A DNA stretch of 64,000 nt from an uncultured delta proteobacterium (GCA_963794325.1 CAWCDG010000009.1:1-64000); one strand, 5' to 3'; counted from the first letter of the stretch, positions 7,301 to 25,955 are shown. Program-made: numbers and translations. The notes: generated by a model from the letters alone, not told the origin.

Positions 7301-8506
7301 TTAGTGAACGCGGGTCGAGCGGAGCTTCTTTGCGAGGTTGCCGCGGCGCGTCACCTTGATTTTTTCGAGGCCCAGCCACGAGGCCATCGTGGACAGCTCG
7401 CGCATCAGCGGCTCGGTCACTGTGCTTGGTCGGACGCCGGGTTCGGTATGCGCTCCCTGGACGAGGAGCGTTCCAGTCGCACGGTCGGATTTCAAATCGA
7501 CGCGCGCGACCAGGCGGTCGCCGAGTAGGAACGGCAGCACGTAGTATCCAAATGTTCGGTCCGCCAACGGAGTGTAAATCTCGATTCGGTAGCGGAAGCC
7601 GAAGATTCTTTCGGTTCGCGCGCGTTCCCATATCAGCGAGTCGAAGGGAGAGAGCAGGGCGCGCGCATCCAGTTTGCGCGGTGACTTCGCGTCGCGCGCG
7701 AGGTAGGCCGGGTCCGGCCATCCTTCGACGGTGACCGGGATCAACTCTCCCGCCTCAACCAGTTCCCTGATGCGCGGTCTTCCGGCACCGATGCGTATGC
7801 GAAAGTAATCGCAAAGATCCTTTTCAGTACCGACACCAAGTGCGCGCGCCGCGATTCGCATCAGCGCGCGTTGCGCGTCTTCGATCGCAGGTGTCGGCAT
7901 CGCGAGGATGCGCGCCGGGATAACCCGCTCCGGGAGATCGTACAGCCGCTCGAAGCCGCGACGCCCCGCGGCCGCGACTTTTCCCGCGGCGAACAGCGCT
8001 TCGAGTGCGCGCTTGCCGTCGCTCCATCCCCACCATCCGCCCTTGCTCGCGCCCGCGCCGGTGATCTCGCGAGCGCTGAGCGCGCCGCGATCGCGAATCT
8101 CGTCGAGCGCCGCCTGTGTGAAGCCGGGACGGCTCCGATCGAGACGCCCAAAGACGTCCCGATGATCGCTAGCTGCCACTGCCATCCGCCAACGCAGCAG
8201 CGGATGCATTTCGTACGGCATCAGCGACGCCATGTGACCCCAATATTCGAACAACTCGCGATTGGCCGGGGCGCCAAGCCATGACGAGTCGAGCAGTTCC
8301 GAAGCGTAAGCGCCGAGGCGCGAAAAGAGCGGCATGTAATGCGAGCGCACCAGCACGTTGACCGAGTCAATCTGCAGCAACCCGATCTGCGCGATGACGC
8401 GTCGCAAGTGCCGCCGGTCGAGCCGCGCCGACGGCCGCGGCTCCGCAAACCCCTGCGCCGCGAGCGCAATCCGTCGCGCTTCGTCCGCCGAGATTTTAGT
8501 TCTCAC
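7301..8506 (-). CDS. YcaQ/AlkZ-family winged-helix crosslink-repair DNA glycosylase
   Basis: LQIDSVNVLVRSH (QxD motif), LFEYWGH, LLSPFDSLIWER, FGYYVLPFL. Confidence 0.85.
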   Translation of the reverse strand: MRTKISADEARRIALAAQGFAEPRPSARLDRRHLRRVIAQIGLLQIDSVNVLVRSHYMPLFSRLGAYASELLDSSWLGAPANRELFEYWGHMASLMPYEMHPLLRWRMAVAASDHRDVFGRLDRSRPGFTQAALDEIRDRGALSAREITGAGASKGGWWGWSDGKRALEALFAAGKVAAAGRRGFERLYDLPERVIPARILAMPTPAIEDAQRALMRIAARALGVGTEKDLCDYFRIRIGAGRPRIRELVEAGELIPVTVEGWPDPAYLARDAKSPRKLDARALLSPFDSLIWERARTERIFGFRYRIEIYTPLADRTFGYYVLPFLLGDRLVARVDLKSDRATGTLLVQGAHTEPGVRPSTVTEPLMRELSTMASWLGLEKIKVTRRGNLAKKLRSTRVH

Positions 8507-8637
8507 GTTCTAACTGCCACCCAGCCCTCGGTTGCGCGACCGCGGATTTTCGCACGGACGTTGCCGATCCTCCACTGGTGCCTGCCGCCGGACGAAACTA
8601 TATTCGGACTCGACCGCCGATAAACAAGGAGAGCTAT

Positions 8638-9183
8638 ATGGGCAATCCTGACCTCATCGCACTTTGGGAAGCGCACTGCCGCTACGAGTTTGAGACCCGC
8701 GATGTCGACGCCACTATGGCCACTATGGTGGCGGAGCCCTACGTCAACCACATCCCCACGATGACGGGGGGCGTTGGGCACGACCATCTCAAGCGCTTCT
8801 ACAAGTATCATTTCATCGGCGTGAATCCGCCCGATTTTCGGCTCACGCCGATTAGCCGCACGGTCGGCACAAGCTGCATCGTTGATGAGTTTATTATGCA
8901 GTTCACACATACCAGGGAGATGGACTGGATGCTGCCGGGTGTGCCGCCGACGGGCAGGACGGTCGAGGTTCCAACTGTGGCCATCGTTCAGTTCGAAGGC
9001 GACAAGCTGGTTCACGAGCATATCTACTGGGACCAGGCGTCGGTCCTCGTGCAGGTCGGCTTGCTCGATCCCGCTGGCTTGCCGGTCGCAGGGGTGGAAA
9101 CTGCGCGGAAGGTCGCCGATAAATGCCGACCAAGCAACGAACTCATGACCCGGTGGGCCGAGAGCAACGGCAAACCGCTATAG
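8638..9183 (+). CDS. SnoaL-like/ester cyclase family protein
   Basis: EPYVNHIPTMTGG, EHIYWDQASVLVQ; AGGAG RBS. Confidence 0.8.
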   Translation: MGNPDLIALWEAHCRYEFETRDVDATMATMVAEPYVNHIPTMTGGVGHDHLKRFYKYHFIGVNPPDFRLTPISRTVGTSCIVDEFIMQFTHTREMDWMLPGVPPTGRTVEVPTVAIVQFEGDKLVHEHIYWDQASVLVQVGLLDPAGLPVAGVETARKVADKCRPSNELMTRWAESNGKPL

Positions 9184-9253
9184 CGACGGGCTGGCCGAAG
9201 TTCTCAGCGCATTTGTAGCCAATGCGACCCGAAAAGATTAATTCTAACTTCCG

Positions 9254-11033
9254 ATGACCTCTACGAATTCTGACAAGCACGCAAGTGACAATACCGCGGC
9301 GGGATTAGTTGCGCCGGATTGTCGCGGGATGAACTTCTACCGCATCGACCGCGGCTTGCGCGACCTGCTCGATCTTCATATGGAGCCGCGGTTGCGCGCT
9401 GCGATGGAGCCGCATCTCGATCGCCTCGGCCAACTTGCTGGAGGCCGGCTCGACGAGCTCGCGGAAATTGCCGACAAGCATCCTCCGGTGCTTCATTCGC
9501 GCGATCGTTTCGGGCGCGACGAGGATTGGGTCGAGTTCCATCCGGCGTACCGCGAGATGGAGCGAATCGCGTTCGGCGAGTTCGGGCTTCATGCGATGGC
9601 GCATCGGCCCGGCGTGATCGGATGGCCCGAGCCGCTGCCCTACATCGCGAAGTACGCGTTCCAGTACCTGTTCGTGCAGGCCGAGTTTGGCCTGATGTGC
9701 CCCATAAGCGTGACCGATACCGGCGCGGTGCTGGTCGAAAATTACGGCAGCGATGAACTCAAGTCGCGCTACCTCGGCCGCATGCTCTCGCAGAACATGG
9801 ATGAGATTTTCAAGGGCGCGCAATACATGACCGAGCGCGCCGGCGGGTCCGATCTCGGCAACAGTGCGGTAGTTGCGAAGCGCGAGGGCGATTTCTGGCG
9901 GCTCTACGGCGACAAGTGGTTTTGCTCGGCGGTTGACGGCGACGTCGTGCTGCTGTTGGCGCGTCCCGACGGCGCGCCCGCCGGATCGAAAGGGCTTGGA
10001 CTTTTCCTGATGCCGCGGCGATTGGAAAACGGCGAGCGCAACAACTATCGAATCGCAAGGCTCAAGGACAAATTTGGCACGCGCTCGATGGCGAGCGGCG
10101 AAGTCGTGCTCGAAGGCGCTTTTGCGTACCAGCTCGGCGCGCTCGACCGCGGCCTGCGCCAGATGATGGACATGGTGAATCTCAGCCGCATGTCTCACGG
10201 CGCCCGCGCGGCCGGCATGATGCGCCGATGCCTCAACGAGTCGCTCGAGGTCGCGCGTCATCGCGCGGCGTTCGGGAAACCGATCATCGAGCATCCGCTG
10301 TTGCGCCGCCAGTTGATGAAGCTGATGGTGCCGACCGAGCAGGCGCTTTCAGTTTTCACTTACGATGCGACGATGATGGACCGGGCGCGCGCGGGCGATG
10401 CGGAAGCCGAGCGTGTGATGCGAGTCCTGACGGCGGTGCTGAAGTTCCGCGCGTGCCGCGACAATATCCGCGTCGCGACCGGCGCGATGGAGGTGCGCGG
10501 CGGCAACGGTTACATCGAGGATTGGGTGAACTCGCGGCTCATCCGCGATGCGCATATCGGCGTGTTGTGGGAAGGCACCAGCAATATCAACGCGCTCGAC
10601 GTGATCAATCGTGCAGTAGCGAAATCCGGCGGCCACGAGACGCTGTCGAAGGCTCTCAAAGCCAAGCTCAAGACGCAAGCGCGGCGCCTGCGGTAAATTC
10701 CGCGCCGAAATCGAAAAGCTGATCGATCGTGCGGTCGCCTTCGCCGGCGAAGTCGCCGCCAAGCCCAAACATGAACGATTGGCCCGCCTTGCGACCGACG
10801 CCCTCTACAATGTAGCGAGCGCAGCGCTGATGACGTGGGAAGGTGCGACCGCCGGCGCCAACGGCCACGACTCCCGCCGCATGATCCTCGCGCGCATGGT
10901 CGTCGAGCATCGCCTGCACGCGGAAGATCCAATGTCGATCCCAACCTCAAACTGGGAGGAGGACGCGACCACCGCGCTGCTCGACCCGGCCGCGGTGTCA
11001 GTCGAACGGGCCGCCCAGCTGGTGACGGCCTAG
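9254..11033 (+). CDS. acyl-CoA dehydrogenase (AidB-like), frameshifted near 10680
   Basis: MTERAGGSD, KWFCS, RLKDKFGTRSMASGE, GGNGYIED, LWEGTSN; continues in another frame (GKFRAEIEKLIDRA...) into ORF 10779..11033. Confidence 0.88.
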
Positions 11034-11833
11034 TTCCTTAGCCAGTTCACGATTCGCTGATGAATCCCGACTGGGTCGGCGGCCTGGAAGGCGTGGCCGG
11101 CGCCGGGAATCATGTACAACTCGGCCTGCGGGATTTTGCTTTTGATTAGGTGCGCGTTCTCGGGCAGCACCAGCACGTCCTTGTCGCCATGCACGATCAG
11201 CACCGGACACTTGATTTGCCCGAGCCTGTCGTATGCGTTGAACGTCTGGATTCCCGCCATCGCGCGGTCCGCGGTTTCCGGTGGCGTCGGCGGCATCATC
11301 TTCGCTCCCGCCACCATCATCTGTTTGATCTCAGGATGCGCGGCGACAAATTCCGGCGGCATGATCGCGGGCAGCAGGATGTCGAAACCTTTCTCGGGAT
11401 CGGTCGCCATGATTTTGTTCGCCGTCATCAGACGCTCGAGGATTTCCGGCGATGCCATCTTTGCGGTCGTGCCTCCGGCCATCGTGCATCCGAGCACGAC
11501 CTTGCCGACCTGTTCCGGATGCCGCAGGGTTAGCTCCTGCGCTATCATCCCGCCCATCGAGACGCCGAACACTTTTGCCTTCGCGATTCCGAGTGCTTTC
11601 AACAGGTTGCTCGCGTCATCGGCCATCGTCTCGACAGTGTAGATCCCTTCCGGCTTGTCGGTGAGTCCAGTTCCGCGATTGTCAAAGTAGATGCTCTTGA
11701 AGCCGCTGAAGAAGGGCAGCGACGGAATCCATCCCGCGCCCGACATCCCGAATCCCATTATCAGCAGCAGCGGTTCGCCGTCGCCGAAAGTGTCGTAGTT
11801 GATATTGATGTTGCCGGCTTTGATTAGTGGCAT
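11030..11833 (-). CDS. alpha/beta fold hydrolase
   Basis: DNRGTG, nucleophile elbow GVSMGG, HGDKD, GAGH. Confidence 0.9.
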   Translation of the reverse strand: MPLIKAGNININYDTFGDGEPLLLIMGFGMSGAGWIPSLPFFSGFKSIYFDNRGTGLTDKPEGIYTVETMADDASNLLKALGIAKAKVFGVSMGGMIAQELTLRHPEQVGKVVLGCTMAGGTTAKMASPEILERLMTANKIMATDPEKGFDILLPAIMPPEFVAAHPEIKQMMVAGAKMMPPTPPETADRAMAGIQTFNAYDRLGQIKCPVLIVHGDKDVLVLPENAHLIKSKIPQAELYMIPGAGHAFQAADPVGIHQRIVNWLRN

Positions 11834-11865
11834 CGCGAAAGGATCCTCCCGATTGAGAATTCAAA

Positions 11866-11903
11866 ATGAAAACGGACGCGGCTCCTCATCGGGCTGCGTC
11901 CGC
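11866..11903 (-). terminator. intrinsic terminator after Rieske gene
   Basis: minus-strand hairpin CGGACGCAGC...GCCGCGTCCG followed by TTTTCATTTT. Confidence 0.6.
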
Positions 11904-11927
11904 GGTTGCGCGCATTCTAAATCAGTG

Positions 11928-12539
11928 TCAGGCGAGCTTCAGGATGCTCTCGGGATGCTGTTCGTTGGGATCGACGCCGGGTTCCATCGTGTAGATGACA
12001 GACTTGTCGACCACCAATTGCCCGTCGTCGCCGACGTAGATTTTGAATCGATCCATCGGGCGCGGTGCCGGCCCCTCGAAGTTCATTCCGCTGATGTAGT
12101 AGCCGGAGCCGTGGCACGGGCATTTGAACTTCTGCTCCGTCTTGAGCCATCGCGGCGTGCATCCGAGATGCGTGCATTTGGCGAAGATCGCGTAGAAGCC
12201 CAACTTGGTGCGGATGATCCAGGTGCGGAAATCCTGCTTATACTTCTCGCTCACTTCGCCGACCACGTAGTCGTCGGGAAGGCCGGCTTTGAACTTCGAT
12301 GGCGGCAGGAAGAGCACGCGGGGGAACGCAGAGCGGACCGCAGCGAGCAAACCGATCAGCGAGAAAACTCCGAACCCGGACCATCCGAGGACGCCCAGAA
12401 AATCGCGACGGCTCCACAGAGTGCCGATCTCGGATTTTTCCTTGTCGCGTTTCGCGCGTTCTTTTGCCTGCTCGTCCTCGCGCCACTTCTTGAGTTGGGC
12501 CGGATCGGTCGGAGCTTTCTCTTTGAGTGCAACAGCCAT
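11928..12539 (-). CDS. Rieske 2Fe-2S subunit (cytochrome bc/b6f type)
   Basis: SRRDFL Tat-like motif plus TM helix, CTHLGC and CPCHGS boxes, GPAPRP. Confidence 0.92.
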   Translation of the reverse strand: MAVALKEKAPTDPAQLKKWREDEQAKERAKRDKEKSEIGTLWSRRDFLGVLGWSGFGVFSLIGLLAAVRSAFPRVLFLPPSKFKAGLPDDYVVGEVSEKYKQDFRTWIIRTKLGFYAIFAKCTHLGCTPRWLKTEQKFKCPCHGSGYYISGMNFEGPAPRPMDRFKIYVGDDGQLVVDKSVIYTMEPGVDPNEQHPESILKLA

Positions 12540-12720
12540 CTAAGTGACGCAACCTCCCACTTCGTGACAAGCGTGCATTAGCTCATCCACATCTAATTGG
12601 ACGTATATGATTAGCAAAAATTCTATTACCCAAAGATACGCAACATTCAAGGGCGAAGATAACCCCCGATTGCCCGGCAATATTGGGTTGATGGCGATGC
12701 TTCTCGACGAGGACCGAATT

Positions 12721-13194
12721 TCAGTGAAGCGCAGGCTGACTGCTCGACCCTGATTGCGCCGGTGGTGCAGGCTGACTGCTCGACCACGATGCCGCCGGTG
12801 GTGCGGCCTGCCTTATCACACTCGAATTGGTGGTGACGGGCGCTCGCGTCGGAGACCAGTCCTGCGGTGTCGTCGAAGTCGTCGTCTGGTCCATCGTGTT
12901 GTCGGGAATGATAGGCACCGGCGGCGGAGGGGCATTTCGATCTTCGCCGCCGATCGGCCGGAAAACCGGCGCCGCGGGACTGTCATTGGCGATCCAATGC
13001 ATCGGACGCGCGACCAGCCATTCGATGCCGTAGCCGATTGGATAGATGATGTCGGCGAAGAGCGCGAGCGGTTGCGAGTCCTCGTCGTGATATTCCTTGG
13101 GGTTCTGTTGATCGTTATCGTTGTACTGCGCGTGTGAAATTGTCGGCAGCCCAACGAACAGCGCGGCGCAGAAAATAATTGCAACTCGACGCAT
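12721..13194 (-). CDS. secreted hypothetical protein with P/S/T-rich tail
   Basis: signal peptide (ISHA-Q) and low-complexity C-terminus. Confidence 0.65.
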   Translation of the reverse strand: MRRVAIIFCAALFVGLPTISHAQYNDNDQQNPKEYHDEDSQPLALFADIIYPIGYGIEWLVARPMHWIANDSPAAPVFRPIGGEDRNAPPPPVPIIPDNTMDQTTTSTTPQDWSPTRAPVTTNSSVIRQAAPPAASWSSSQPAPPAQSGSSSQPALH

Positions 13195-13284
13195 GCGGAT
13201 AACTTTGCGTGATTGCGCACGGCGATGTCAACACGTCGCAATCGTTCTTGCGCTGCCACCCTTGCAGGCGCAATTCTAAGCGAG

Positions 13285-14634
13285 ATGAGCACATCAGCCA
13301 TGCGCCCCCTTCGTGCATGCTTGCAGATTTCCACCACCGCGGCAGCAATTCTTCTATTCGCGTTCGGTTCGATTGCCTACGGCGCGGCGCCGGCCGGCTG
13401 TATCGCTTTCGTCGGCACCGATTCGAACATCTACTACTGCGACGCAATGTGCGCGACGCCAAAATGCATCACGTGCAAGGCAGCCGCGATACACGTTCGG
13501 CGCGACGATGCGATCACAGCGGTCGCGCTAACCGACGCCGCTCCTGACGCCGGGCCCGGCGCGGGCGGCACCGAGTACGGATGGCCGACGTTCTCTCCCG
13601 ATGGCCGCCGCATCGCGTATTCGTCCGAGACCCACAAGCCAGCCGAGGATTCGTTCGCGGTATGGGTTTACGATCTCGCGCACAGCCAGGCGATGCTGAT
13701 ATTTGAAAGCCGCTCCGAGCGCATCGTGTACATGGCATGGACGCCCGACGGACAGCATCTTTCGTTTCTGCTCGGCGAGCCGCACGGACTGAGCCTGGTG
13801 CTGGCTGAGGTCAAGGAATCGACGCCGGTCAGAATCGTCACGACCGGCCTGCCGCTGTACTTCGATTGGGGCGGGCCCGGCGAGGTTGCACTGCACACGC
13901 TCGCGCTCGATTCCGAACGCACCGAACAGGTTTCGCTGATGACCGTGACGCCCACCAGCCAGAACGTCGTCAAAGTGCTGTCGAACGGGCGCACCCCGTT
14001 CAAGACTCCCGCATGGTCGCCCGACGGCAAGCACCTCGCGTACATCGCTAGCTACCACGCCGAGTCAAACATCGTGGTCGCCGACGCCGACGCCAGCCAT
14101 CCGCGCTCGGTGGTGAGTCTGCCGGTGGGAGAGAACAGCTTCGTGTGGGCGCCGGACTCGGCGCATCTGGCGTACTCGACCGCGATCACGCCGCAGGACC
14201 CCACCTATCACGGCATCAAGCTGGTCGACATCGCGACCGCGAATTCGAAATGGCTGACCAAGGACGACGTCGCGGCATTTTTCTTCGCGCCCGACTCGCG
14301 CCACGTCGCGTTCATCGGCGTCCCCGAAGAGAAGCCGTACTACAGCTGGTCGGTGGTTGACGTTAAGAGCGGCGCTCAAAAGGCGCTCGGCAATTTTCTG
14401 GCGACGCCCGACGAATCGACCGCGTATCGTTACTTCGATCAGCTCGCCGTGTCGCACACGATCTGGTCGCCTGATTCGACCGCATTCATCTACGCGGGAG
14501 TGAAACTCGAAGGGTCGCCGCAGCATGCACTGGGAATTGCGCCGGCGCCGTCGGCGTACATTGTGCCGATCGACGGCAGCTCCCCGCACGCAGTCGCCAA
14601 CGCAGTGCTAGGTTTCTTCTCGCCCGCAAAGTAG
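13285..14634 (+). CDS. secreted TolB-like beta-propeller (PD40 repeats)
   Basis: repeated PTFSPDG, WTPDG, AWSPDG, WAPDS, IWSPDS; signal peptide; start codon uncertain. Confidence 0.8.
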   Translation: MSTSAMRPLRACLQISTTAAAILLFAFGSIAYGAAPAGCIAFVGTDSNIYYCDAMCATPKCITCKAAAIHVRRDDAITAVALTDAAPDAGPGAGGTEYGWPTFSPDGRRIAYSSETHKPAEDSFAVWVYDLAHSQAMLIFESRSERIVYMAWTPDGQHLSFLLGEPHGLSLVLAEVKESTPVRIVTTGLPLYFDWGGPGEVALHTLALDSERTEQVSLMTVTPTSQNVVKVLSNGRTPFKTPAWSPDGKHLAYIASYHAESNIVVADADASHPRSVVSLPVGENSFVWAPDSAHLAYSTAITPQDPTYHGIKLVDIATANSKWLTKDDVAAFFFAPDSRHVAFIGVPEEKPYYSWSVVDVKSGAQKALGNFLATPDESTAYRYFDQLAVSHTIWSPDSTAFIYAGVKLEGSPQHALGIAPAPSAYIVPIDGSSPHAVANAVLGFFSPAK

Positions 14635-16843: not shown

Positions 16844-17101
16844 TCAGTTTGACAACCCCAATGATTTGTAGGTATCGGCAAGTTTCTTTTGCTGGTCACA
16901 CTCATCCGGATAGTCAGAGTAGATACACCGCTGATATTCGTCCTGAGCAGGGGTTTCAAAACCGGCCCCTCCGAGCGGCGTTGAAAATGGGCTGCCAAGA
17001 TTGAGCGACGAACAAGACGACAATAATAAGCTCAGCATCACAAGCGCGGCTGCGTGGCGAAGTCTCATCGCGCGCACTAATGAAACAGTTTGCTGTACCA
17101 C
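16844..17101 (-). CDS. small lipoprotein
   Basis: hydrophobic stretch and lipobox LLSSC. Confidence 0.55.
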   Translation of the reverse strand: MVQQTVSLVRAMRLRHAAALVMLSLLLSSCSSLNLGSPFSTPLGGAGFETPAQDEYQRCIYSDYPDECDQQKKLADTYKSLGLSN

Positions 17102-18567
17102 GGCCTCGACGGGGGAGGCGTGCCGTACGGCGGCGGGTATCCATATGGATACGGATTCGGGGCGTACGGATTGTAGCCCGGGGCATACGGATTCGCGTAT
17201 GCGTACGGATTTGGCCGGTAGTACGGCGACGGCGGATACGCTCCATACGGCGAGGGATACGTCGGCGGATTGCTGTACGCGGTCATCCCGCTGCCGCCGC
17301 CGACCGTGTCGATCGACGCCTCGACGAAATTGTCGCCGTTGCCGTATGCGCGGATCCTCGCGTCGCTGCCCGCCGGCATCGGGAACGTCAGATCGAACGC
17401 ACTGTAGCCGCCGGTGCTGATCGAAATCGGCTTGACCAGCCGGCCGTTGACGTAAACGCCCGCATGACGCACGCCCGGTCCTGCGATCTGCCCGACCACT
17501 TCGACATTTCCCGGCGCCGACATTAACTCCTCGGCATCGATCACGTTGATCTGCACGTTGGTCAAAGGCCCGAGCGACGAGTTCGCTTCGATATGACGCC
17601 GCGACGGCGAGAGTTCATCGCCGGGCCGCCCAATCTCGGCGGTGTTGTTACCCTTGGACGGTCCCGCCGACGCGAGCGGACTCTCCGCCAACGGACCCGC
17701 CTCTCCGCCCGACGCGCTCGCGCCCGGATCGACTTCGATCATCTCTTCGCGGCCCTTCATCGGGCCAATCGCCGCAGGGTCCGGCGTCACCAGCGCCTGT
17801 GCTTCGCGCCCGTAAACGTCGGCCACGCGAATCGATTGTGTCGCCGACGGCTGCTCGATCGAGAAATCAAAATTGACGCGCTGCTCGCCCGGCGTATCCG
17901 CGACGTCGATGTCCTTGGTCTTCGCGTCGCCGTCGAAAATTCCCGCCGACTTGAGATCGGTGCCTTCGAAGAAGCCCTTCACCCGCACCTTCCCCTCCTG
18001 GAACACTCGCGATGCGATCTGGATCTTCGGCGCCTCCGGCATCTTTTCTCCCGCTGGCGGCGCAACCGACGAATGCGATTCCGGCACGTCGCTGTGGGCA
18101 ACCGGCCCTTTCGCCGCGGGCACCTGCTTTTCCAGCGCCGCGATCTTTTCCCTGATACTCGTCCACTGCTCAGGATATTGCCCGCCTGCAATTTTCGCCG
18201 CGGCTTCTATCCGGTCGCGATCGCTGAGTATCGAGGTCATCGCGCCGCCGGCGCTCGCACTGTCATGCGCACTCAGAGCCGGGGAGAGCGTTTGCGCATC
18301 GCCGGCCAGGCTGGCGGCGGGCGCCAAGATCGGCCCGGCCTTGGTGGACGACGCATTGATCGCATTGAGCATCGCGAACGCACGGTCGCTCAACTCGAGG
18401 GCCTGTGCCTGCGCGTCCTGCGCGAAGGATTGCCGCGGCCCGATTCCCAACGCAGCGGTCGCGAACGCCAGTAATAAGATCGCCGTCGCGATCCGCCCGC
18501 GGACGGATTCGATACGCGCCACGCGCGCGACGCTTCTTGTTTTGACGAAGTCGATCACCCCGCCCAT
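17077..18567 (-). CDS. secreted hypothetical protein with Tyr/Pro-rich C-terminus
   Basis: signal-like N-terminus; tail YPSPYGAYPPSPYYRPNPYAYANPYAPGYNPY. Confidence 0.75.
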   Translation of the reverse strand: MGGVIDFVKTRSVARVARIESVRGRIATAILLLAFATAALGIGPRQSFAQDAQAQALELSDRAFAMLNAINASSTKAGPILAPAASLAGDAQTLSPALSAHDSASAGGAMTSILSDRDRIEAAAKIAGGQYPEQWTSIREKIAALEKQVPAAKGPVAHSDVPESHSSVAPPAGEKMPEAPKIQIASRVFQEGKVRVKGFFEGTDLKSAGIFDGDAKTKDIDVADTPGEQRVNFDFSIEQPSATQSIRVADVYGREAQALVTPDPAAIGPMKGREEMIEVDPGASASGGEAGPLAESPLASAGPSKGNNTAEIGRPGDELSPSRRHIEANSSLGPLTNVQINVIDAEELMSAPGNVEVVGQIAGPGVRHAGVYVNGRLVKPISISTGGYSAFDLTFPMPAGSDARIRAYGNGDNFVEASIDTVGGGSGMTAYSNPPTYPSPYGAYPPSPYYRPNPYAYANPYAPGYNPYAPNPYPYGYPPPYGTPPPSRPWYSKLFH

Positions 18568-18578
18568 GACCCAGTTTG

Positions 18579-18716
18579 CTACTGCGATTCCCGGTAGCGT
18601 TCCGCGGTTTGTTTGATCCGGCGAGCGAGTTTCAGGAACACTTCCCCCTCATCGTAGATGAAGAGCGCAAGAGCAGCAGCAGCACCCACAATCAGACCGA
18701 GGATAAATGCGCCCAT
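18579..18716 (-). CDS. 45-aa membrane protein (YtxH-like N-terminus), not in ORF track
   Basis: hand translation MGAFILGLIVGAAAALALFIYDEGEVFLKLARRIKQTAERYRESQ; strong GGAGGGGAGG RBS; 11 bp before next gene. Confidence 0.75.
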   Translation of the reverse strand: MGAFILGLIVGAAAALALFIYDEGEVFLKLARRIKQTAERYRESQ

Positions 18717-18787
18717 AATTTCCTCCCCTCCGGTGTCACGATTATATTCAAATTCCCGCGATTGAACCTACCCGAAAAAACCTCGGT

Positions 18788-18877
18788 AATCCGGTTCCCT
18801 TTCCCACTATGGGAAGAGGCTACTCCCAACAATCCGGTTCCCCTTCCCACGATGGGAAGGGGTTAGGGGTTAGGTTC
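18788..18877 (-). repeat. palindromic repeat family A, double-hairpin copy
   Basis: reverse complement AACCTAACCCCTAACCCCTTCCC-N-GGGAAGGGGAACCGG; matches copies at 30303, 33484, 35640, 43893. Confidence 0.85.
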
Positions 18878-18918
18878 CCGATACGCAACCCGCAACTTTC
18901 TAGTATCTTGATCATATC

Positions 18919-19857
18919 GTGCCGCATCTCGACACATCCGATCGCCCCAATGTGGGCGTCCTCCCCCTCGACGCGCGGATCATTGTCCGCGTGACCGGTG
19001 ACGATCGCGCGTCGTTTCTTCATGGGATGTGCACCGCTGACGTGAACGGCGCCCGCCCCGGAACGATCCTGCCGGCGCTGTTTCTCACCGAGCATGCGCA
19101 CGTGATTTCCGAAGCGTTCATCTGGGTGACGTCTGATTCGCTGCTGCTCGACATCGACGCCGAAGCATGGACGCGCACACATGCGCATCTGGAAAAATTG
19201 CTGGTCGCCGACGATGTCGAATTCGAAGATGCCGCCGATCTCGCGATCATAGACGTCGAAGGACCGGCCGCCCTCGACGCTACCGGCGCGACGCAGCTCG
19301 CTGAGTGGAGCTTCAAGGTCGTCGGCGAGTCGCTGGTCGGCAACCTGCCTCGCTTCGGGGGACCGGCGGCGTCTGTGATCGCACCGCGCGATTCGATCGA
19401 TTCGACCATCGCATCAGTTCTCGCGAAGGCCCCCGGAGCGCGCCGCATCGATTCCTCGATACTAAACAGCATCCGCGTCGAAAATGGTGTCGCACTGGTC
19501 GGCGTCGATACCAGCGACAAGACGATCGCGCTCGAAGCGCGTCTCAATCGCTCGATCTCCTCTAATAAGGGATGCTATCTCGGGCAGGAAACGATCGAGC
19601 GCGCGACTGCTCGCGGCGGTTTGAAAAAACGGATGTTCGGACTTAAGTTCAATATTGCGACTGCCCCGGCGACCGGCTCGGTCCTGAGTCTCGACGGCAA
19701 GGAAATCGGCCGGGTGACGAGCGCCGTAATCTCGCCGCGCTTCGGCGCGATCGGGCTTGCGATTCTGCATCACAGCGCATGGACGCCCGGGATGCAGCTG
19801 AAAGTGGGCGAGGGCGGCTCTGCAACAGTGATGGAGTTGCCGTTTGCGCAGAATTGA
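18919..19857 (+). CDS. ygfZ: YgfZ/GcvT family folate-binding protein
   Basis: KGCYLGQE signature; VTGDDRASFLHG. Confidence 0.9.
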   Translation: MPHLDTSDRPNVGVLPLDARIIVRVTGDDRASFLHGMCTADVNGARPGTILPALFLTEHAHVISEAFIWVTSDSLLLDIDAEAWTRTHAHLEKLLVADDVEFEDAADLAIIDVEGPAALDATGATQLAEWSFKVVGESLVGNLPRFGGPAASVIAPRDSIDSTIASVLAKAPGARRIDSSILNSIRVENGVALVGVDTSDKTIALEARLNRSISSNKGCYLGQETIERATARGGLKKRMFGLKFNIATAPATGSVLSLDGKEIGRVTSAVISPRFGAIGLAILHHSAWTPGMQLKVGEGGSATVMELPFAQN

Positions 19858-19924
19858 CGAGTTGATGCGATACTTTAAGTTTATTTTATCGGCCCACAGG
19901 GTCGAATTTTGAAGGAGTTCATCG

Positions 19925-20068
19925 ATGGCTAACGTGCTCGGTAAGCGTTACATGTGCGAAAAGTGCGGCACTGAGGTGCTCTGCAACAAGGCTGGCACCG
20001 GCCCGCTCGAGTGTTGCGACATCGAGATGAAAATCAAGGAAGCGAAGCCGCTTCCAAGTTCCGATTAG
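19925..20068 (+). CDS. 47-aa desulforedoxin-like metal-binding protein with KPLPSSD tail, not in ORF track
   Basis: MANVLGKRYMCEKCGTEVLCNKAGTGPLECCDIEMKIKEAKPLPSSD; CxxC-x15-CC; GAAGGAG RBS. Confidence 0.88.
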   Translation: MANVLGKRYMCEKCGTEVLCNKAGTGPLECCDIEMKIKEAKPLPSSD

Positions 20069-20086
20069 TACCTCACGCCGCCGCGA

Positions 20087-21679
20087 TTGGTCGCTGGCGA
20101 CGAAGGCATTCGTTCCAAAGTGGTAGCCGCGTCCGGGAAAGCTGACCTGGTTCTGCACGAGGGTATTATCCTCGGTCATCCGGGCAGCGACTCGGTGGCA
20201 ATCTCCGGTGGCTTGATCGCCGCGCTCGGTCCGTTCGCGGATCTGAAACCGTTCGTCGGTCCGCAAACTCATCTGATCAAGCTGGCCGGCCGCGTCGTCG
20301 CCCCCGGCCTGATCGATTCACACATCCATTTTCGCGAGGCCGCCGCCGCCGCAACCGGAATCTCGGTTCAGCGATGCCGCACGGTTGGCGATGTGCTCGC
20401 GGACCTGCGCCTCGCCAGTGGCAAGGCTCCGCCCGGCAACTGGCTGCGCGCATTCGGATGCGACGAAGCGCTGATGCTGGAAAAGCGCGGGCCGACGCGC
20501 GCCGAGCTCGATCACTCGACGCCTAAAAATCCGCTGCGCCTGCGCCATCAGACGCTCCACGCCACCTGGCTCAACTCGCGCGCGATCGCGCTGCTCGGTC
20601 TCGAGGCGCCCGACTTCACGCCGCCCTACGGCGCCAACATGATTCGCGACGCCGCCGGCAAGCTCACTGGCCTGCTGGTCGGAATGGAAACGTGGCTGTC
20701 GGATCATCTGCCGCCGGTGACCGCCGCGGAATCCGAATCGCGCGCGCGTATCATGAGCCGCGAGATGGCTGGCAACGGAGTCACCGCGTTCACCGACGCC
20801 ACCACGCGCAACGGCCCGGTCGAAGTCGAGCAGTTCGCAAAGCTCGTGCAGTCGAATGCGATATGCCAGCGCGTCGCGCTGATGATCGGCGGCCAGCATC
20901 TCGACCTCATCGATCGATGCGATCAGATTGCCCGCGCCGCGAAGATCTCGCTGGCCGGCGCGAAGTTCATGCCCGGTTATCAATACGATCCCGCAGGCCT
21001 TTCGCGCCCCGTCCGTCGTGCACTCGAACGCGGACTGGATTGTGCGTTTCACGTCACCGAACTCGAAGAGCTGGAAGAGGCGCTCGCGGCTATCGAAGCC
21101 GCCAAGGCAAAATTCGCGGGCGCGCACGAGATGCCGAAGTTCCGCATCGAGCACGGCGGTCTCATCACGCCCGACTACATCGACCGCCTGATGGCCGCCA
21201 ACGTGTGGGTCGTGACCAACCCCGGCTTCATTTATTTCCGCGGCGCCAAGTACAGTGACGAGCCCGGGCTCCTCGCGCATCTATATCGCGCGCGCAGTCT
21301 CAAGGACGCCAACGTCCACCTGGCCGGCGCGACCGACGCGCCGGTCACGCCCGCGCGGCCGCTCACGGCGATCGCGGCCGCGGTTACGCGCACCACGATC
21401 GACGGCGTCCAGCTTGCGCCCGCCGAAGCGCTCTCGATGCCCGATGCGTTCGCGCTTTTCACCACCGAAGCCGCGCGCCTCGCGCGTCTCGACGCCGGCG
21501 CCATCGCAGTCGATCGGCTGGCCGATCTGATCGTGCTGCCGCGCGATCCTTTCGCGATGAAACCCGCCGACCTGATGAACCTCACCGTCGATATCACGAT
21601 CGTCGCCGGCCGCGTGGTGTACGAGCGCGGCCGCCCCGCAATCGCCAGCAGCGACAGCGCCGACCTGCGCTCCACGTAA
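20087..21679 (+). CDS. amidohydrolase family 3 (YtcJ-like)
   Basis: PGLIDSHIH, FRIEHG, ATDAPVT, ADLIVL, IVAGRVVY; start uncertain. Confidence 0.85.
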   Translation: MVAGDEGIRSKVVAASGKADLVLHEGIILGHPGSDSVAISGGLIAALGPFADLKPFVGPQTHLIKLAGRVVAPGLIDSHIHFREAAAAATGISVQRCRTVGDVLADLRLASGKAPPGNWLRAFGCDEALMLEKRGPTRAELDHSTPKNPLRLRHQTLHATWLNSRAIALLGLEAPDFTPPYGANMIRDAAGKLTGLLVGMETWLSDHLPPVTAAESESRARIMSREMAGNGVTAFTDATTRNGPVEVEQFAKLVQSNAICQRVALMIGGQHLDLIDRCDQIARAAKISLAGAKFMPGYQYDPAGLSRPVRRALERGLDCAFHVTELEELEEALAAIEAAKAKFAGAHEMPKFRIEHGGLITPDYIDRLMAANVWVVTNPGFIYFRGAKYSDEPGLLAHLYRARSLKDANVHLAGATDAPVTPARPLTAIAAAVTRTTIDGVQLAPAEALSMPDAFALFTTEAARLARLDAGAIAVDRLADLIVLPRDPFAMKPADLMNLTVDITIVAGRVVYERGRPAIASSDSADLRST

Positions 21680-22410
21680 TGTCGTCGAAGTCGAACGGTT
21701 CGAGCGCGGTGCTCTACGAAAAGCGCGGCCCCGTCGCGTGGGTCACGCTGAATCGCCCCGCGCAATTCAACGCCTACAACATGGCGATGCGCGACGCATT
21801 GTTTCAAATCCTCGCCGCCATCCACGACGATCGCGAGGTTCGCGCGATGGTGCTGCGCGGCGCCGGCCAGGCCTTCTCGACCGGCGGCGATCTCGCCGAA
21901 TTCGGGATGGCGCCGTCGCCAATCGTCGCGCGATGGGTCCGCTTTCGCCGCGACGTGTGGGGGATGCTCCGCGCGTTGCCGATACCGACTATCGCGGCCA
22001 TCCACGGTTACACGGTTGGCGGCGGTCTCGAGATGGCTCTGCTCTGCGACTTCGCAATCGCCGCCGACGACACCCGCCTGTCACTGCCCGAGACCGGCGC
22101 CGGCATGATTCCCGGCGTCGCCGGAACGCAGACCGCCGCGCGCCGCCTCGGCCTCGGCCGCGCGCTCGACCTTTGCCTCACCGGCCGTTGGATTGACGCC
22201 CAAGACGCGTTACTTTCAGGTATGGTCGCCGAAGTGGTCCCCCTGGCCGACTTGGATCGCCGCGCTCTCACGATCGCGCGTGAATTTGCACGCGTCAGCC
22301 GCGAGCGGTCCGCGATACTGAAGCTGGCGGTCTGGGGAGGCCTCGATTTGCCGTTGCGACAAGGACTCGAACTCGAACGTCGGCTCTGGAAGAGAGGAAG
22401 CGCGCTGTGA
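21679..22410 (+). CDS. enoyl-CoA hydratase/isomerase
   Basis: TLNRP, FSTGGDL, GGGLEMALLCD, LPETGAG; start overlaps upstream stop. Confidence 0.9.
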   Translation: MSSKSNGSSAVLYEKRGPVAWVTLNRPAQFNAYNMAMRDALFQILAAIHDDREVRAMVLRGAGQAFSTGGDLAEFGMAPSPIVARWVRFRRDVWGMLRALPIPTIAAIHGYTVGGGLEMALLCDFAIAADDTRLSLPETGAGMIPGVAGTQTAARRLGLGRALDLCLTGRWIDAQDALLSGMVAEVVPLADLDRRALTIAREFARVSRERSAILKLAVWGGLDLPLRQGLELERRLWKRGSAL

Positions 22411-23954
22411 ACACCGTCAACTTCGTCACGATCCCTGCTTCGATCGTGCCCGACCAGGAAATCCTGGTTTTCGGCGCGCGACGTCTCACCTACGCGGATC
22501 TGAACGACCAGGTCGCCCGCCTCTGCGCGGTATTCAAGCAGTTCGGCCTCGCGCACGGCGACGTCATTGCAGTCCTGGACACCAACTCTGATCTCTACAT
22601 CGAATGCTATTACGCCGCGGCCAAGGCCGGGCTCACATTCCTGCCGCTCAACTATCGCGCCAAGGATGCCGAGCTCGAGTACATGATCAACACCGCGGAT
22701 GCGAAAGCGTTGCTGGTCGGCGATCGCTATCTCGAATTGATCGCGAAGATTCAGCCGCGGTTGCGCGCCAGCAAAATCGTGGCGCTCGGCGATGGCGCCA
22801 AGGGATTGCCGCGCCTCGCCGACCTGGTCGCGAAGGCGGAGCCCGATGAATCCGAAGCGGAAGTCGAAGACGAGGACATCTCGATCCTCATGTACACGAG
22901 CGGGACTACGTCGCTGCCCAAAGGCGTCCAGCTTCGCTTCCGCGATTTCGCCGCGTACGTGACCGCCAACGTCGAGATGGCCGACGGCACCGACCGCGGC
23001 GTCGCGCTGGTGTGCGTGCCCTTTTACCACATCGCGGGAACCACGGCGTACATGACCAACACCTGGACCGGCCGCAAGCTGATCATAATGCCGCAGTTCG
23101 ACGCCAAGGCATGGCTCGATCTCGTCGCGCGCGAGCACGTCACGCACGCCTTCGTCGTGCCCACGATGATGAAGCAGATCATCGACGAGCCTGCGTTCGC
23201 GAAAACCGATCTCTCGACGCTGACCAACCTCGCCTACGGCGGCGCTGCGATGCCGGTACAGGTGATTCGTCGCGCGATTGAAGTCTTCCCGAAGAAAGTC
23301 GGCTTCGTGAACGCCTACGGCCAGACTGAAACGACGTCATCGTTGACCGTGCTCGGTCCCGACGATCACCGGATCGAGGGGACGCCTGAAGAGGTCGAAC
23401 TCAAGCTCAAACGCCTCAACTCAATTGGCAAGCCGCTCCCCGACGTCGAAATCCGCGTCCGCGACGAAGACGGCAAGTTCCTGCCGCACGGCCAGGTCGG
23501 CGAAATAATTATCCGCACCCCGCGCATCATGAAGGGCTATGCCGGCCGCGACGATGACGCGCGACTGCCCGACGGATGGCGCGCGACCGGCGACCTCGGA
23601 TGGCTCGACGACGACGGCTACGTTTTCTTCGCGGGCCGCAAGGACGACATGATCATCCGCGGCGGCGAAAATATCGCGCCAGCTGAAATCGAAACCGTCC
23701 TGATGAGCCATCCGGCCGTTGACGAATGCGCTGTTATTGGCGTTCCTTCGGTCGAATGGGGGCAAATCGTCAAGGCCTTCGTCTGTGTGCGCAAGGGCGC
23801 CAAGGTGAGCGAGTCTGAGCTCGAGGATTTTTGCCGGTCGCGGCTTGCGAGCTTCAAGCGCCCCGAGCGTATCGAGTTCATCGACGCGCTACCGAAAAAT
23901 CCGCTCGGCAAAATTCTGCGCAAAGATTTGCGCGCACCCGCTGGAGGCGTCTGA
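22407..23954 (+). CDS. AMP-dependent acyl-CoA synthetase (class I adenylate-forming)
   Basis: YTSGTTSLPKG, YGQTET, TGDLG, GRKDDMIIRGGENI, LPKNPLGK. Confidence 0.93.
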   Translation: MNTVNFVTIPASIVPDQEILVFGARRLTYADLNDQVARLCAVFKQFGLAHGDVIAVLDTNSDLYIECYYAAAKAGLTFLPLNYRAKDAELEYMINTADAKALLVGDRYLELIAKIQPRLRASKIVALGDGAKGLPRLADLVAKAEPDESEAEVEDEDISILMYTSGTTSLPKGVQLRFRDFAAYVTANVEMADGTDRGVALVCVPFYHIAGTTAYMTNTWTGRKLIIMPQFDAKAWLDLVAREHVTHAFVVPTMMKQIIDEPAFAKTDLSTLTNLAYGGAAMPVQVIRRAIEVFPKKVGFVNAYGQTETTSSLTVLGPDDHRIEGTPEEVELKLKRLNSIGKPLPDVEIRVRDEDGKFLPHGQVGEIIIRTPRIMKGYAGRDDDARLPDGWRATGDLGWLDDDGYVFFAGRKDDMIIRGGENIAPAEIETVLMSHPAVDECAVIGVPSVEWGQIVKAFVCVRKGAKVSESELEDFCRSRLASFKRPERIEFIDALPKNPLGKILRKDLRAPAGGV

Positions 23955-24001
23955 CGCCGCGCCTCGCCAAAAAATCCCGGCCGCATCGCGCCGCTCGCAA
24001 C

Positions 24002-24739
24002 GTGCCCGCCGGCGCGATCGATGTTTCTTTCGCCAGTGGATGCGTGACCGCGGCGCTTCATTACTCCGGCTCGCGCGCGATTCTCACCCCGGCGATGGCC
24101 GTCCGGCTGCTCGAACTGTTCGAGCACGTCGAGGACGACGACGCTGCTCGCATGCTCGCGCTCACCGGCGCCGGCAACTCGTTCTGCATCGGCTTCGACG
24201 ACGCAGTCGATCCGCGCCTCGTCGAATCGCTTGCCGTGCTCTCGAAGCCCACCGTCGCGATCATCAACGGCGACGCGTTCGACGAAGGCCTCGAGCTTGC
24301 GATGGCCGCCGACATACGCGTTGCAATTTCGTCCGCTCATTTCGCGATCACGCAAGTGAAGAGCGGAACGATGCCCCATTTCGGCGCGACCCAGCGACTC
24401 CCACGCCTCATCGGCGCCGCCAACGCACTGCGCCTGATGCTCACCGGAACGGCTCTGGGAGCCGACGACGCGATGCGCGCCGGCCTCGTTACGTATCTCG
24501 CCGACAGCCCGGGCGACCTCGCCGCCACCAGCGGCCGCGTCGCCGAGGCTATCCTGAGCCGCGCTCCGCTCGCCGCGCGCCTGGTCAAGGACGCGGTCCT
24601 GAAGGGCTACGACATGACTTTGGACCAGGGCATCAGGCTTGAGGAGGATCTGTACGCCCTGCTACAAACGAGTTCCGACCGCGCCGAAGGCGTCCGCGCA
24701 TTTTTGGAGAAGCGCAAACCGCTCTTCCGAGGCGCGTGA
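24002..24739 (+). CDS. crotonase-family protein, degenerate active site
   Basis: GLELAMAADIR, GATQRLPRLIG, EGVRAFLEKRKP; start uncertain (GTG 24002). Confidence 0.85.
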   Translation: MPAGAIDVSFASGCVTAALHYSGSRAILTPAMAVRLLELFEHVEDDDAARMLALTGAGNSFCIGFDDAVDPRLVESLAVLSKPTVAIINGDAFDEGLELAMAADIRVAISSAHFAITQVKSGTMPHFGATQRLPRLIGAANALRLMLTGTALGADDAMRAGLVTYLADSPGDLAATSGRVAEAILSRAPLAARLVKDAVLKGYDMTLDQGIRLEEDLYALLQTSSDRAEGVRAFLEKRKPLFRGA

Positions 24740-24790
24740 ATCTCGGCGCAAACTTAGCGACAAATAATCCGAAAGGACCAGGACCCACGA

Positions 24791-24910
24791 ATGGCAAATC
24801 AGCTCGGCAAAGTTTATATCTGCGGTAACTGCAAATCGCAGGTCATCGTCACCAAAGGCGGCGCCGGCCAGCTCAAGTGCTGCGGCGCTCCGATGGAACA
24901 AAAAAAGTAG
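24791..24910 (+). CDS. 39-aa desulforedoxin-like protein, not in ORF track
   Basis: MANQLGKVYICGNCKSQVIVTKGGAGQLKCCGAPMEQKK; CxxC-x15-CC; AGGA upstream. Confidence 0.88.
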   Translation: MANQLGKVYICGNCKSQVIVTKGGAGQLKCCGAPMEQKK

Positions 24911-24964
24911 CGATCACCCGCGCTGTTCCTGGCGCTATCGCGACAACTGAACTGAGGTCCCCAA

Positions 24965-25189
24965 ATGATTGCTGCGATCATAGTCGGAATAATTGCAGGC
25001 TTTCTGGCCGGCAAGATCATGGATGGCTCGGGCTTCGGAGTGATCGGCGATCTGCTGCTCGGCCTGGTCGGCGGCCTCATCGGCGGCGCGATCTTCGGTT
25101 CACCGAACGGCATGATCGGCGCGATTGCCGTCGCCACGATCGGCGCGGTGATCCTGGTGTGGATCTCGCACATGATTAAGCGCGTCTAG
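24965..25189 (+). CDS. GlsB/YeaQ/YmgE family membrane protein
   Basis: GIIAGFLAGKIM...G.IGDLLLGLVG...ATIGA. Confidence 0.88.
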   Translation: MIAAIIVGIIAGFLAGKIMDGSGFGVIGDLLLGLVGGLIGGAIFGSPNGMIGAIAVATIGAVILVWISHMIKRV

Positions 25190-25301
25190 GGAAACGGTTT
25201 GCGCGGGCGGAATTCCCAGCCGCTCGCGCGGATGGAGCAAAAAAAGTAGCGGTCACGCTGTGCCGCTCTAGCGCTATTGCGACAACCAGGAGGACCACAC
25301 G

Positions 25302-25535
25302 ATGCTCTATGCGATCCTAGTCGGAATAGTCGCGGGCTGGCTCGCCGGCAAGCTGGTGCGCGGCGCAGGCTTCGGACTAATCGGCGACCTGATCCTCGGC
25401 CTGATCGGTGGCTTCGTCGGCGCATGGATCTTCGGCGCCCTCGGAATTCATGGACCCGACGGCGCGATAGGCGCGATCCTCGTCGCGACCGTCGGCGCCG
25501 TCGTGCTGGTCTGGATCTCGCACGTTATTCTATAG
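25302..25535 (+). CDS. GlsB/YeaQ/YmgE family membrane protein (tandem paralog)
   Basis: GIVAGWLAGKLV...IGDLILGLIG...ATVGA; AGGAGG RBS. Confidence 0.88.
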   Translation: MLYAILVGIVAGWLAGKLVRGAGFGLIGDLILGLIGGFVGAWIFGALGIHGPDGAIGAILVATVGAVVLVWISHVIL

Positions 25536-25565
25536 GTCTGATCGAGCGCCGACGCGCGCCGCCGC

Positions 25566-25955
25566 TCACCCGATCGCGCGGATGCGCAGTTCCTCGGCCT
25601 GCTTGCGAATCGGCTCCGGCAGCTTTACTTCGTGCGCATCAATCCAGTTGCGCTCGAGCCGATAGAACTCGCGCGCCGGTTCGTAGAACAGGTGGATCAC
25701 GACGTCGTCGTAGTCGAGCACGACCCAGTGCGCATGATGCATCCCTTCGACGGCCAGCGGACGCTGCCCCGTCCTGCCCATCGCTTCCTCGATTCCGCGC
25801 GCGATCGCCTGCACCTGCACATCGGAGCGTCCGGTCGCCACCAGGAAATAATCCGCGACCGGCTTCAGATGCTCGGCTTCGAGCACGACCAGGTCGTAGG
25901 CCTTTTTTTCGAGCGCCGCTTCGGCCGCGACGATAGCCTTCTTCAGCGCCGTCAA
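25566..25955 (-). CDS. rsfS: ribosome silencing factor
   Basis: DYFLVATG, WVVLDYDDVVIHLF, REFYRLE; follows nadD. Confidence 0.93.
   Translation of the reverse strand: MTALKKAIVAAEAALEKKAYDLVVLEAEHLKPVADYFLVATGRSDVQVQAIARGIEEAMGRTGQRPLAVEGMHHAHWVVLDYDDVVIHLFYEPAREFYRLERNWIDAHEVKLPEPIRKQAEELRIRAIG

Follow-up and report, generated by a model that had tools for sequence, protein, structure and literature searches.

What do two very small desulforedoxin-like proteins do at either end of an operon of acyl-CoA-type enzymes? The question is raised by a 64,000-nucleotide stretch of DNA from an uncultured delta proteobacterium (GCA_963794325.1, CAWCDG010000009.1:1-64000), referred to here in its entirety as the window, whose genome belongs to Candidatus Binataceae, class Binatia. 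A first-pass annotation of the window had called two paralogous mini-genes, each with a ribosome-binding site, that open and close a run of genes for an amidohydrolase, a crotonase, an adenylate-forming ligase and a second crotonase. We refer to these mini-genes as DxL and DxS. DxL (19925..20068, + strand) encodes a tailed mini-protein of 47 amino acids (aa) with a predicted desulforedoxin fold, and DxS (24791..24910, + strand) encodes a tail-less protein of 39 aa with the same predicted fold. Translation of the window shows that both proteins follow the pattern MAN.LGK.Y.C-x2-C-x15-CC, with cysteines C11, C14, C30 and C31 in the CxxC-x15-CC spacing, and that DxL carries an additional C-terminal tail (...KEAKPLPSSD, with KPLPSSD at the C-terminus) that is absent from DxS. 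A Shine-Dalgarno-like element lies 7 nt 5' of each ATG, AAGGAG for DxL and AGGA for DxS. When Binataceae loci were compared with the window, the ratio of nonsynonymous to synonymous polymorphism (pN/pS) was 0.14 over 79 loci for DxL and 0.155 over 62 loci for DxS. The call of two paralogous mini-genes at these positions was therefore borne out, and DxL and DxS are genuine genes under purifying selection.

Genes of this type escape the usual cut-offs for open reading frames (ORFs) or carry only the label 'hypothetical protein', and full-text literature searches turned up no publication on the DxS/DxL family. The family nonetheless appears to be widespread, as a search at E<=0.01 of a collection clustered at 90% identity gave 126 relatives of DxL, and a library clustered at 50% gave 429 representatives at E<=1e-3. 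A search of the ESM Atlas returned only clusters of the same kind as the query mini-protein. The Pfam family PF06397 (Desulfoferrod_N), with a cut-off of 23 bits, matches DxS above threshold at 31.8 bits and DxL slightly under it at 20.3 bits, and a scan of DxL, DxS and 10 relatives gave PF06397 and weak zinc-ribbon matches and nothing else. A match to PF26435 that a precomputed listing gives for the relative P0003 was not reproduced by direct Pfam scan. DxL and DxS are the only PF06397 matches in the window's genome (4.45 Mb, 10 contigs, 85% complete), and the superoxide-reductase domain PF01880 was not found there, although at 85% completeness its absence is not proven; this agrees with the earlier remark that the desulforedoxin site stands here without its usual superoxide reductase partner.

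DxS and DxL as halves of one module

How the two mini-proteins relate to each other becomes apparent outside the window. A metagenome scan that used a different DxL clade as query gave 432 relatives, from which 80 loci were kept. Every one of the 73 loci with at least 260 bp of upstream sequence has a DxS-like gene directly ahead of DxL (68 called by tblastn and 5 by eye). Furthermore, among the library representatives of 80-120 aa, many join a DxS-like half through a linker to a tailed half within one chain; these fused chains are typically ~100 aa long, end in PLP[SA]SD, and match PF06397 over two stretches each (46.3 bits for P0123 and 42.7 bits for P0121). Because DxS and DxL are adjacent or fused in one chain outside Binatia, the window holds the split form, as the first-pass annotation had suggested. 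Its mention of a two-domain fusion beside AMP-binding enzymes held in part, since the fusion exists and adjoins a ligase in 11 of 12 plasmid loci described below, but what it joins is the two mini-protein halves and not a mini-protein with an AMP-binding enzyme. Taken together, these arrangements show that DxS and DxL belong together as halves of one module.

The fold of the module was examined by structure prediction. An AlphaFold2 model of the natural fusion P0121, built from 32 aligned sequences, reached a pLDDT of 82.6 and a pTM of 0.70, with low values in the linker alone. In this model of a relative of the window proteins, the tailed half superposes on desulforedoxin of D. gigas (1dxg_A) with a TM score of 0.95 and a root-mean-square deviation (rmsd) of 0.4 A over 35 columns, and residues 46-81 match 1cfw_A with a Z score of 4.7 and an rmsd of 0.3 A over 36 residues; the C-terminal tail falls outside the desulforedoxin core. 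A profile of the fused forms likewise matches 1cfw (E 0.0026) and desulfoferrodoxins (E ~0.006). As judged from the model, the fold of the module is shown to be desulforedoxin-like. The window's DxL modelled alone has a pLDDT of 83.6, and the values for the tail block (84 in the fused model, 71 in DxL alone) are too weak to judge if the tail lies against the other half.

Other architectures were also encountered. The sole fusions to an enzyme, the DxL-amidohydrolase chains P0266 and P0274, are frameshifted singletons with garbled C-termini, and we rejected them as assembly artefacts. In a third architecture (P0188, P0191, P0192, P0196, P0204, P0205, P0218, P0221 and others), an unrelated and probably helical N-terminal domain of ~60 aa replaces DxS; Pfam has no match for this domain, and tblastn found it in none of the loci examined.

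Does the module work through its metal sites? In 29 diverse single-domain DxL proteins, G6, K7, C11, C14, G26 and the terminal D47 never vary, and the fourth cysteine position holds C, H, F or G, whereas the DxS cysteines C11, C14, C30 and C31 are all invariant in the DxS alignment. The ending [PA][SAG][SA]D occurs in ~115 of the 150 best library representatives, and among 32 fused forms the invariant columns are reduced to G, R, L and the terminal D. A large subgroup has a tailed half without any metal ligand, yet retains GKRY, E[VL]L.TK.G and KPLP[SA]SD; for this cysteine-poor fused form alone, a search at E<=1e-3 gave 1477 relatives (clusters at 90% identity), the few named ones being Acidimicrobiales. 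All four ligands of the tailed half are likewise absent from 12 of 12 plasmid fusions and from the copy in G143, a genome of the same class as the window's, with GKRY and KPLP[SA]SD retained in each. These losses show that the tailed half can do without its metal ligands. It is the family's constant element, and its function cannot depend on a redox metal. The Fe/Zn site, which the first-pass annotation saw in the cysteine pattern, is thus not essential to the family, in which a classic iron-protein fold is reused without its metal.

These observations bear on the possibility that DxS and DxL form a rubredoxin- or desulforedoxin-type Fe(Cys)4 pair that serves as electron carrier for a flavoenzyme of the pathway. 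The intact CxxC...CC sites of both window proteins and the invariant cysteines of DxS are what such a role would predict, and several related clusters contain NMO-type FMN enzymes, acyl-CoA dehydrogenases and ferredoxins. However, the window's operon has no redox enzyme, the fourth DxL cysteine varies, and the tail stays invariant where every ligand of the tailed half has been lost, and we consider an electron carrier highly improbable.

A six-frame scan of the window's genome for ORFs of at least 35 aa gave 4 matches to the DxL tail, among which DxL alone looks real. With no convincing second ORF of the same ending in the genome, we rejected the idea that the tail is a docking signal common to other proteins.

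Linkage to an acyl-CoA ligase across three phyla

Which enzyme, if any, accompanies the module? Within Binataceae, the order YgfZ-like gene, DxL, amidohydrolase, first crotonase (ECH1), ligase, second crotonase (ECH2) and DxS was found in 62 of 80 loci, a count that allows split matches from assembly frameshifts and for which 7 kb were scanned per locus; 15 of the other 18 loci end at a contig edge and 3 are incomplete inside the scanned 7 kb. Of 200 other genomes of the phylum that were searched, 10 encode a tailed DxL, with matches that extend through residue 47 at E<1e-9. The mini-genes bracket the operon as they do in the window in the same-class genomes G174, G110 and G076, and DxS lies immediately upstream of DxL in seven genomes outside the class (G126, G067, G046, G182, G152, G070 and G031). 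Clusters with the adjacent pair read ECH2, ECH1, ligase, DxS, DxL, followed downstream by NMO-type, alpha/beta-hydrolase or MBL genes, two family-III CoA-transferases, Amidohydro_3 and acyl-CoA dehydrogenase genes. Since the order DxL-amidohydrolase-ECH1-ligase-ECH2-DxS differs from ECH2-ECH1-ligase-DxS-DxL, the linkage has outlived rearrangement.

The ligase stands out among the linked genes. Its orthologs form a distinct group that scores at least 506 bits, with the next best match at 395, and they occur in 9 of the 200 genomes. All 9 encode a tailed DxL, which lies inside the cluster in 8 of them; conversely, 8 of the 10 genomes with a tailed DxL have the ligase ortholog within the cluster. 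The ligase-linked genomes cover at least 7 families, and kin genomes among them are non-independent samples.

The same association was found in cultured organisms of other phyla. Among plasmid records, 19 have a match to the cysteine-poor fusion (12 from Rhodococcus, 3 from Streptomyces, 2 from Sphingobium and 1 each from Sphingomonas and Mycobacterium), and we considered the annotation of 12, leaving out 4 without usable annotation at the match, 2 near-duplicates and the record H7. In 11 of these 12 loci, the fused gene (~100 aa, annotated 'hypothetical protein') is the immediate same-strand neighbour of a gene for an adenylate-forming or fatty-acid-CoA ligase, upstream of it in 7 and downstream in 4. 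The loci represent Actinomycetota and Alphaproteobacteria in at least 5 different arrangements, and their other genes vary, including CaiB/BaiF pairs, crotonases, SDRs, acyl-CoA dehydrogenases, a thiolase with an OB-fold protein, and an amidohydrolase. Ligases that adjoin the fusion are 36-41% identical to the window ligase, and other ligases at the same loci are 28% identical to it. Taken together, these findings show that linkage of DxS/DxL to a ligase recurs across three phyla, and among the operon genes the linkage of the mini-protein pair is strongest to the ligase.

We propose that DxS/DxL is a small, non-redox partner of a carboxylate-activating step, chiefly that of this clade of ANL acyl-CoA ligases, a reading to which we give an even chance. 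DxS and DxL would pair as a heterodimer in the window's organism, and in other phyla one chain would act as a pseudo-dimer. The module would be non-catalytic and would assist carboxylate activation, above all by this ligase clade, in a manner conceptually like that of MbtH-like proteins toward adenylation domains. The Cys4 metal sites of the window proteins would serve only to stabilise the fold, and the work would be done by two invariant elements, the GKRY surface and the C-terminal tail with its final Asp; the tail may dock on the partner enzyme. Physical binding to the ligase, with the tail as contact element, is what we infer from these patterns.

Several observations weigh against a dedicated ligase partner. 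In the same class, G143 has an operon of YgfZ, amidohydrolase, ECH1, ligase and ECH2 genes without flanking mini-genes (L205, G143:C13:16000-35000, ~8320-13674, - strand), the ligase of which is 58% identical to that of the window, and its only tailed DxL is a cysteine-less copy on another contig (L044, ~9761-9889), where it is accompanied by a weak DxS and lies beside a sulfotransferase-like gene. Ligases ~40% identical to the window's were found in the 200-genome search in genomes where DxL was not found. The plasmid locus of R. gordoniae has no ligase within 5 kb of the fused gene, and the amidohydrolase is inconstant, being absent from the G076 cluster and most plasmid loci. Among 40 metagenome loci of at least 6 kb, a context sample that is biased by the query clade, just 7 have a match to a crotonase, ligase, CoA-transferase, amidohydrolase or NMO gene within 5 kb; contexts of the other 33 include Thioredoxin_9, luciferase-like and Zn-ADH genes, pyrimidine genes with GTP cyclohydrolase I, LexA and RelA/SpoT, and lipoyl synthase. 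The first-pass annotation had regarded the mini-proteins as dedicated partners of an amide-hydrolysis and acyl-activation pathway, and its proposed tabulation of neighbourhoods and fusions thus yields a divided answer. The ORFs are conserved and the linkage to ligase and crotonases recurs in at least 7 families, but the linkage is not universal, and a dedicated role in that pathway is too narrow given the inconstant amidohydrolase, G143 and the 33 metagenome loci.

These varied contexts are what would be expected of a general-purpose small protein with a housekeeping, stress, regulatory or metal-handling role, which would lie among CoA genes through inheritance and through hitch-hiking in operons of lineages that have many such genes. 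The metagenome neighbours (thioredoxin, universal stress protein, LexA, RelA/SpoT, pyrimidine and folate genes) and the unlinking of the pair from the operon in G143 are consistent with such a role. In addition, tblastn of the window's genome gives ~30 crotonase, 36 family-III CoA-transferase and 31 acyl-CoA dehydrogenase matches, and in a genome so rich in CoA genes, lying next to one by chance is not rare. However, inheritance and hitch-hiking would have to accommodate a linkage to orthologous ligases that outlives changes of gene order in at least 7 families of the phylum and reappears in 11 of 12 plasmid loci, in two other phyla and in at least 5 arrangements. We regard a general-purpose role as unlikely.

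A further point against a dedicated ligase partner comes from four loci, L040 (in G152) and L194-L196, in which a family-I CoA-transferase pair takes the ligase's place beside DxS-DxL. A partner specific to the ANL fold fails to explain these loci because the CoA-transferase pair replaces the ligase there. They raise the possibility that the module is itself a substrate or carrier: the neighbouring enzyme would activate the carboxylate of the terminal Asp of DxL, by adenylation or CoA-thioesterification, or load it, with DxL as a LysW- or ubiquitin-like scaffold and release by an amidohydrolase. In every architecture, the terminal Asp is the one tail residue that never varies, amidohydrolases recur in the clusters, and the constant neighbour is a carboxylate-activating enzyme of two unrelated folds, ANL ligase or family-I CoA-transferase; because the activating neighbour may have either fold, a shared substrate suits these loci better than a fold-specific subunit. 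Nevertheless, we know of no precedent for an ANL enzyme that activates a protein C-terminus, and the substrates of crotonases and CaiB/BaiF transferases are small acyl-CoAs. Many clusters lack the amidohydrolase, and many family members have no enzymes of these kinds nearby. A carrier role is decidedly unlikely in our view, and we consider it very unlikely that the tailed mini-protein is a new protein-borne carboxylate, its Asp activated or loaded by the ANL ligase or, in some lineages, by the CoA-transferase; on that reading the pair would be no passive subunit but a LysW- or ubiquitin-like scaffold for CoA-dependent chemistry.

For the preferred reading of a partner in carboxylate activation, structure prediction was uninformative. 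A predicted complex of DxS, DxL and the ligase, with alignments of 31 rows, the ligase as scored partner and no controls, gave ipSAE values of 0.21 and 0.30 against a mark of 0.32 and is not evidence either way. If true, this reading would reveal an unnoticed ligase partner, which matters for expressing and engineering acyl-CoA ligases and for annotating catabolic clusters; we know of no acyl-CoA ligase with an accessory subunit. The fused form is carried on plasmids of culturable strains of Rhodococcus, Streptomyces and Sphingobium, and the question is therefore open to direct bench work.

The operon between the mini-genes

What pathway do the bracketed genes encode? All lie on the + strand, and the first-pass description of a tightly coupled run of amidohydrolase, crotonase, ligase and second crotonase is upheld by domain matches and by overlaps of 1 nt between the amidohydrolase and ECH1 genes (TAATG) and 4 nt between the ECH1 and ligase genes (GTGA). 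The Amidohydro_3 metal-dependent hydrolase (20087..21679; TTG start uncertain) matches PF07969 at 221 bits, carries the metal motif DSHIHF as read from its translation, and was found to have just two relatives in the PDB, the uncharacterised hydrolases 3icj and 3igh. ECH1 (21679..22410; PF00378, 166 bits) is a canonical crotonase (enoyl-CoA hydratase) with both catalytic Glu residues, which are Glu at both positions in 78 of 78 orthologs, and its nearest solved structure is 5zai, a 3-hydroxypropionyl-CoA dehydratase. The ANL acyl-CoA ligase (22407..23954) matches PF00501 at 276 bits, PF13193 at 82 bits and NF004837 at 479.4 bits (cut-off 476), and its nearest solved relatives are feruloyl- and fatty-acyl-CoA synthetases.

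The last enzyme, ECH2 (24002..24739; PF00378, 132 bits), is a non-canonical crotonase with an uncertain start. Its ORF opens at 23831, within the ligase gene; past the ligase stop, the first start codon is GTG 24002. The nearest solved relative of ECH2 is likewise a 3-hydroxypropionyl-CoA dehydratase. The first catalytic Glu is kept, and none of 73 orthologs has Glu at the second position, which is occupied by Gln in 61, His in 8 and another residue in 4; ECH2 is probably not a plain hydratase. As far as sequence allows, the pathway of the operon appears generic, and its substrate is not nameable.

Upstream of DxL lies a gene for a YgfZ/GcvT-like folate-binding protein (18919..19857, + strand), which matches GCV_T and GCV_T_C in Pfam and TIGR03317 at 68.7 bits (cut-off 49). 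This gene is also 5' of DxL in G174, G110, G076 and the Binataceae loci, and it was not seen at DxS/DxL clusters of families outside class Binatia. A scan of 18700-25700 for promoters and terminators found no signal exceeding shuffles. Directly 3' of DxS are two tandem paralogous genes for small membrane proteins of 74 and 77 aa (24965-25189 and 25302-25535, + strand; Transgly_assoc, PF04226), and a Transgly_assoc homologue is also found 3' of the operon in G174. On the far side of the YgfZ-like gene, a 496-aa ORF (17077-18567, - strand) ends in an extreme Pro/Tyr-rich low-complexity tail of ~70 residues.

Three neighbourhoods elsewhere are worth recording. Locus L041 (G070:C2, 1737-4324) has two DxS-like genes, one past the ligase and one ahead of DxL, with a divergent CoA-transferase A/B pair between them. 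At L043 (G109:C131, 68-3375), a tail-less desulforedoxin-like mini-ORF (1643-1765) is found between two HpaB-type flavin-dependent hydroxylase genes, with methylmalonyl-CoA mutase genes downstream; it belongs to a different subfamily, possibly in a redox context. Finally, in one marine metagenome clade, a gene for a conserved ~155-aa protein with no Pfam match lies on the same strand just 5' of DxS-DxL (L137:9219-9695, L142:9267-9734, L164:9066-9575 and L172:2970-3416), and a Thioredoxin_9 gene diverges from it. The ~155-aa protein could be another partner.

Comparison with known small proteins

The closest relatives by predicted fold are desulforedoxin (D. gigas, 1dxg/1cfw, PF06397) and the N-terminal centre-I domain of desulfoferrodoxin (2Fe-superoxide reductase), which have the same fold of ~36 residues and the same CxxC-x15-CC spacing. 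Desulforedoxin is a dimer, which fits the two-part DxS/DxL module. In contrast to that homodimer, the module has two unlike halves or is a fused pseudo-dimer, and the family adds the GKRY motif and a 10-residue C-terminal tail with an invariant terminal Asp. It further differs in that the metal ligands are dispensable in many members, in that no superoxide reductase domain was found in the window's genome, and in being found next to acyl-CoA ligases in aerobic lineages from soil and the sea.

Two other groups of small proteins resemble the module in part. LysW is a small zinc-ribbon-type globule with a conserved acidic C-terminal tail, the last residue of which is a functional carboxylate, and in this DxL would be like it. 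However, DxL ends in KPLPSSD whereas LysW ends in EDWGE, and a Pfam scan found no ATP-grasp (LysX-type) ligase domain among the operon proteins, the neighbours being CoA-thioester enzymes. DUF35/OB-fold zinc-ribbon proteins, which act as scaffolds of thiolase and HMG-CoA synthase complexes, are likewise small, Cys4 and non-catalytic and are encoded in CoA-ester clusters; indeed, DUF35-type 'OB-fold' genes adjoin thiolases in several plasmid clusters that carry the fused mini-gene. Their fold (OB-fold with a rubredoxin-like ribbon) and their partner (thiolase) are nevertheless different.

The MbtH-like proteins offer a parallel for the proposed role. They are tiny and non-catalytic, they are encoded beside an adenylating enzyme of the ANL superfamily, and orphans also occur, all of which recalls DxS/DxL. 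The two are unrelated in sequence and fold, with Pfam giving only PF06397 and weak zinc-ribbon matches for DxS/DxL, and the putative partner of DxS/DxL is an acyl-CoA ligase rather than a nonribosomal peptide synthetase adenylation domain. The likeness would therefore be one of analogy, in a possible mode of action rather than in family.

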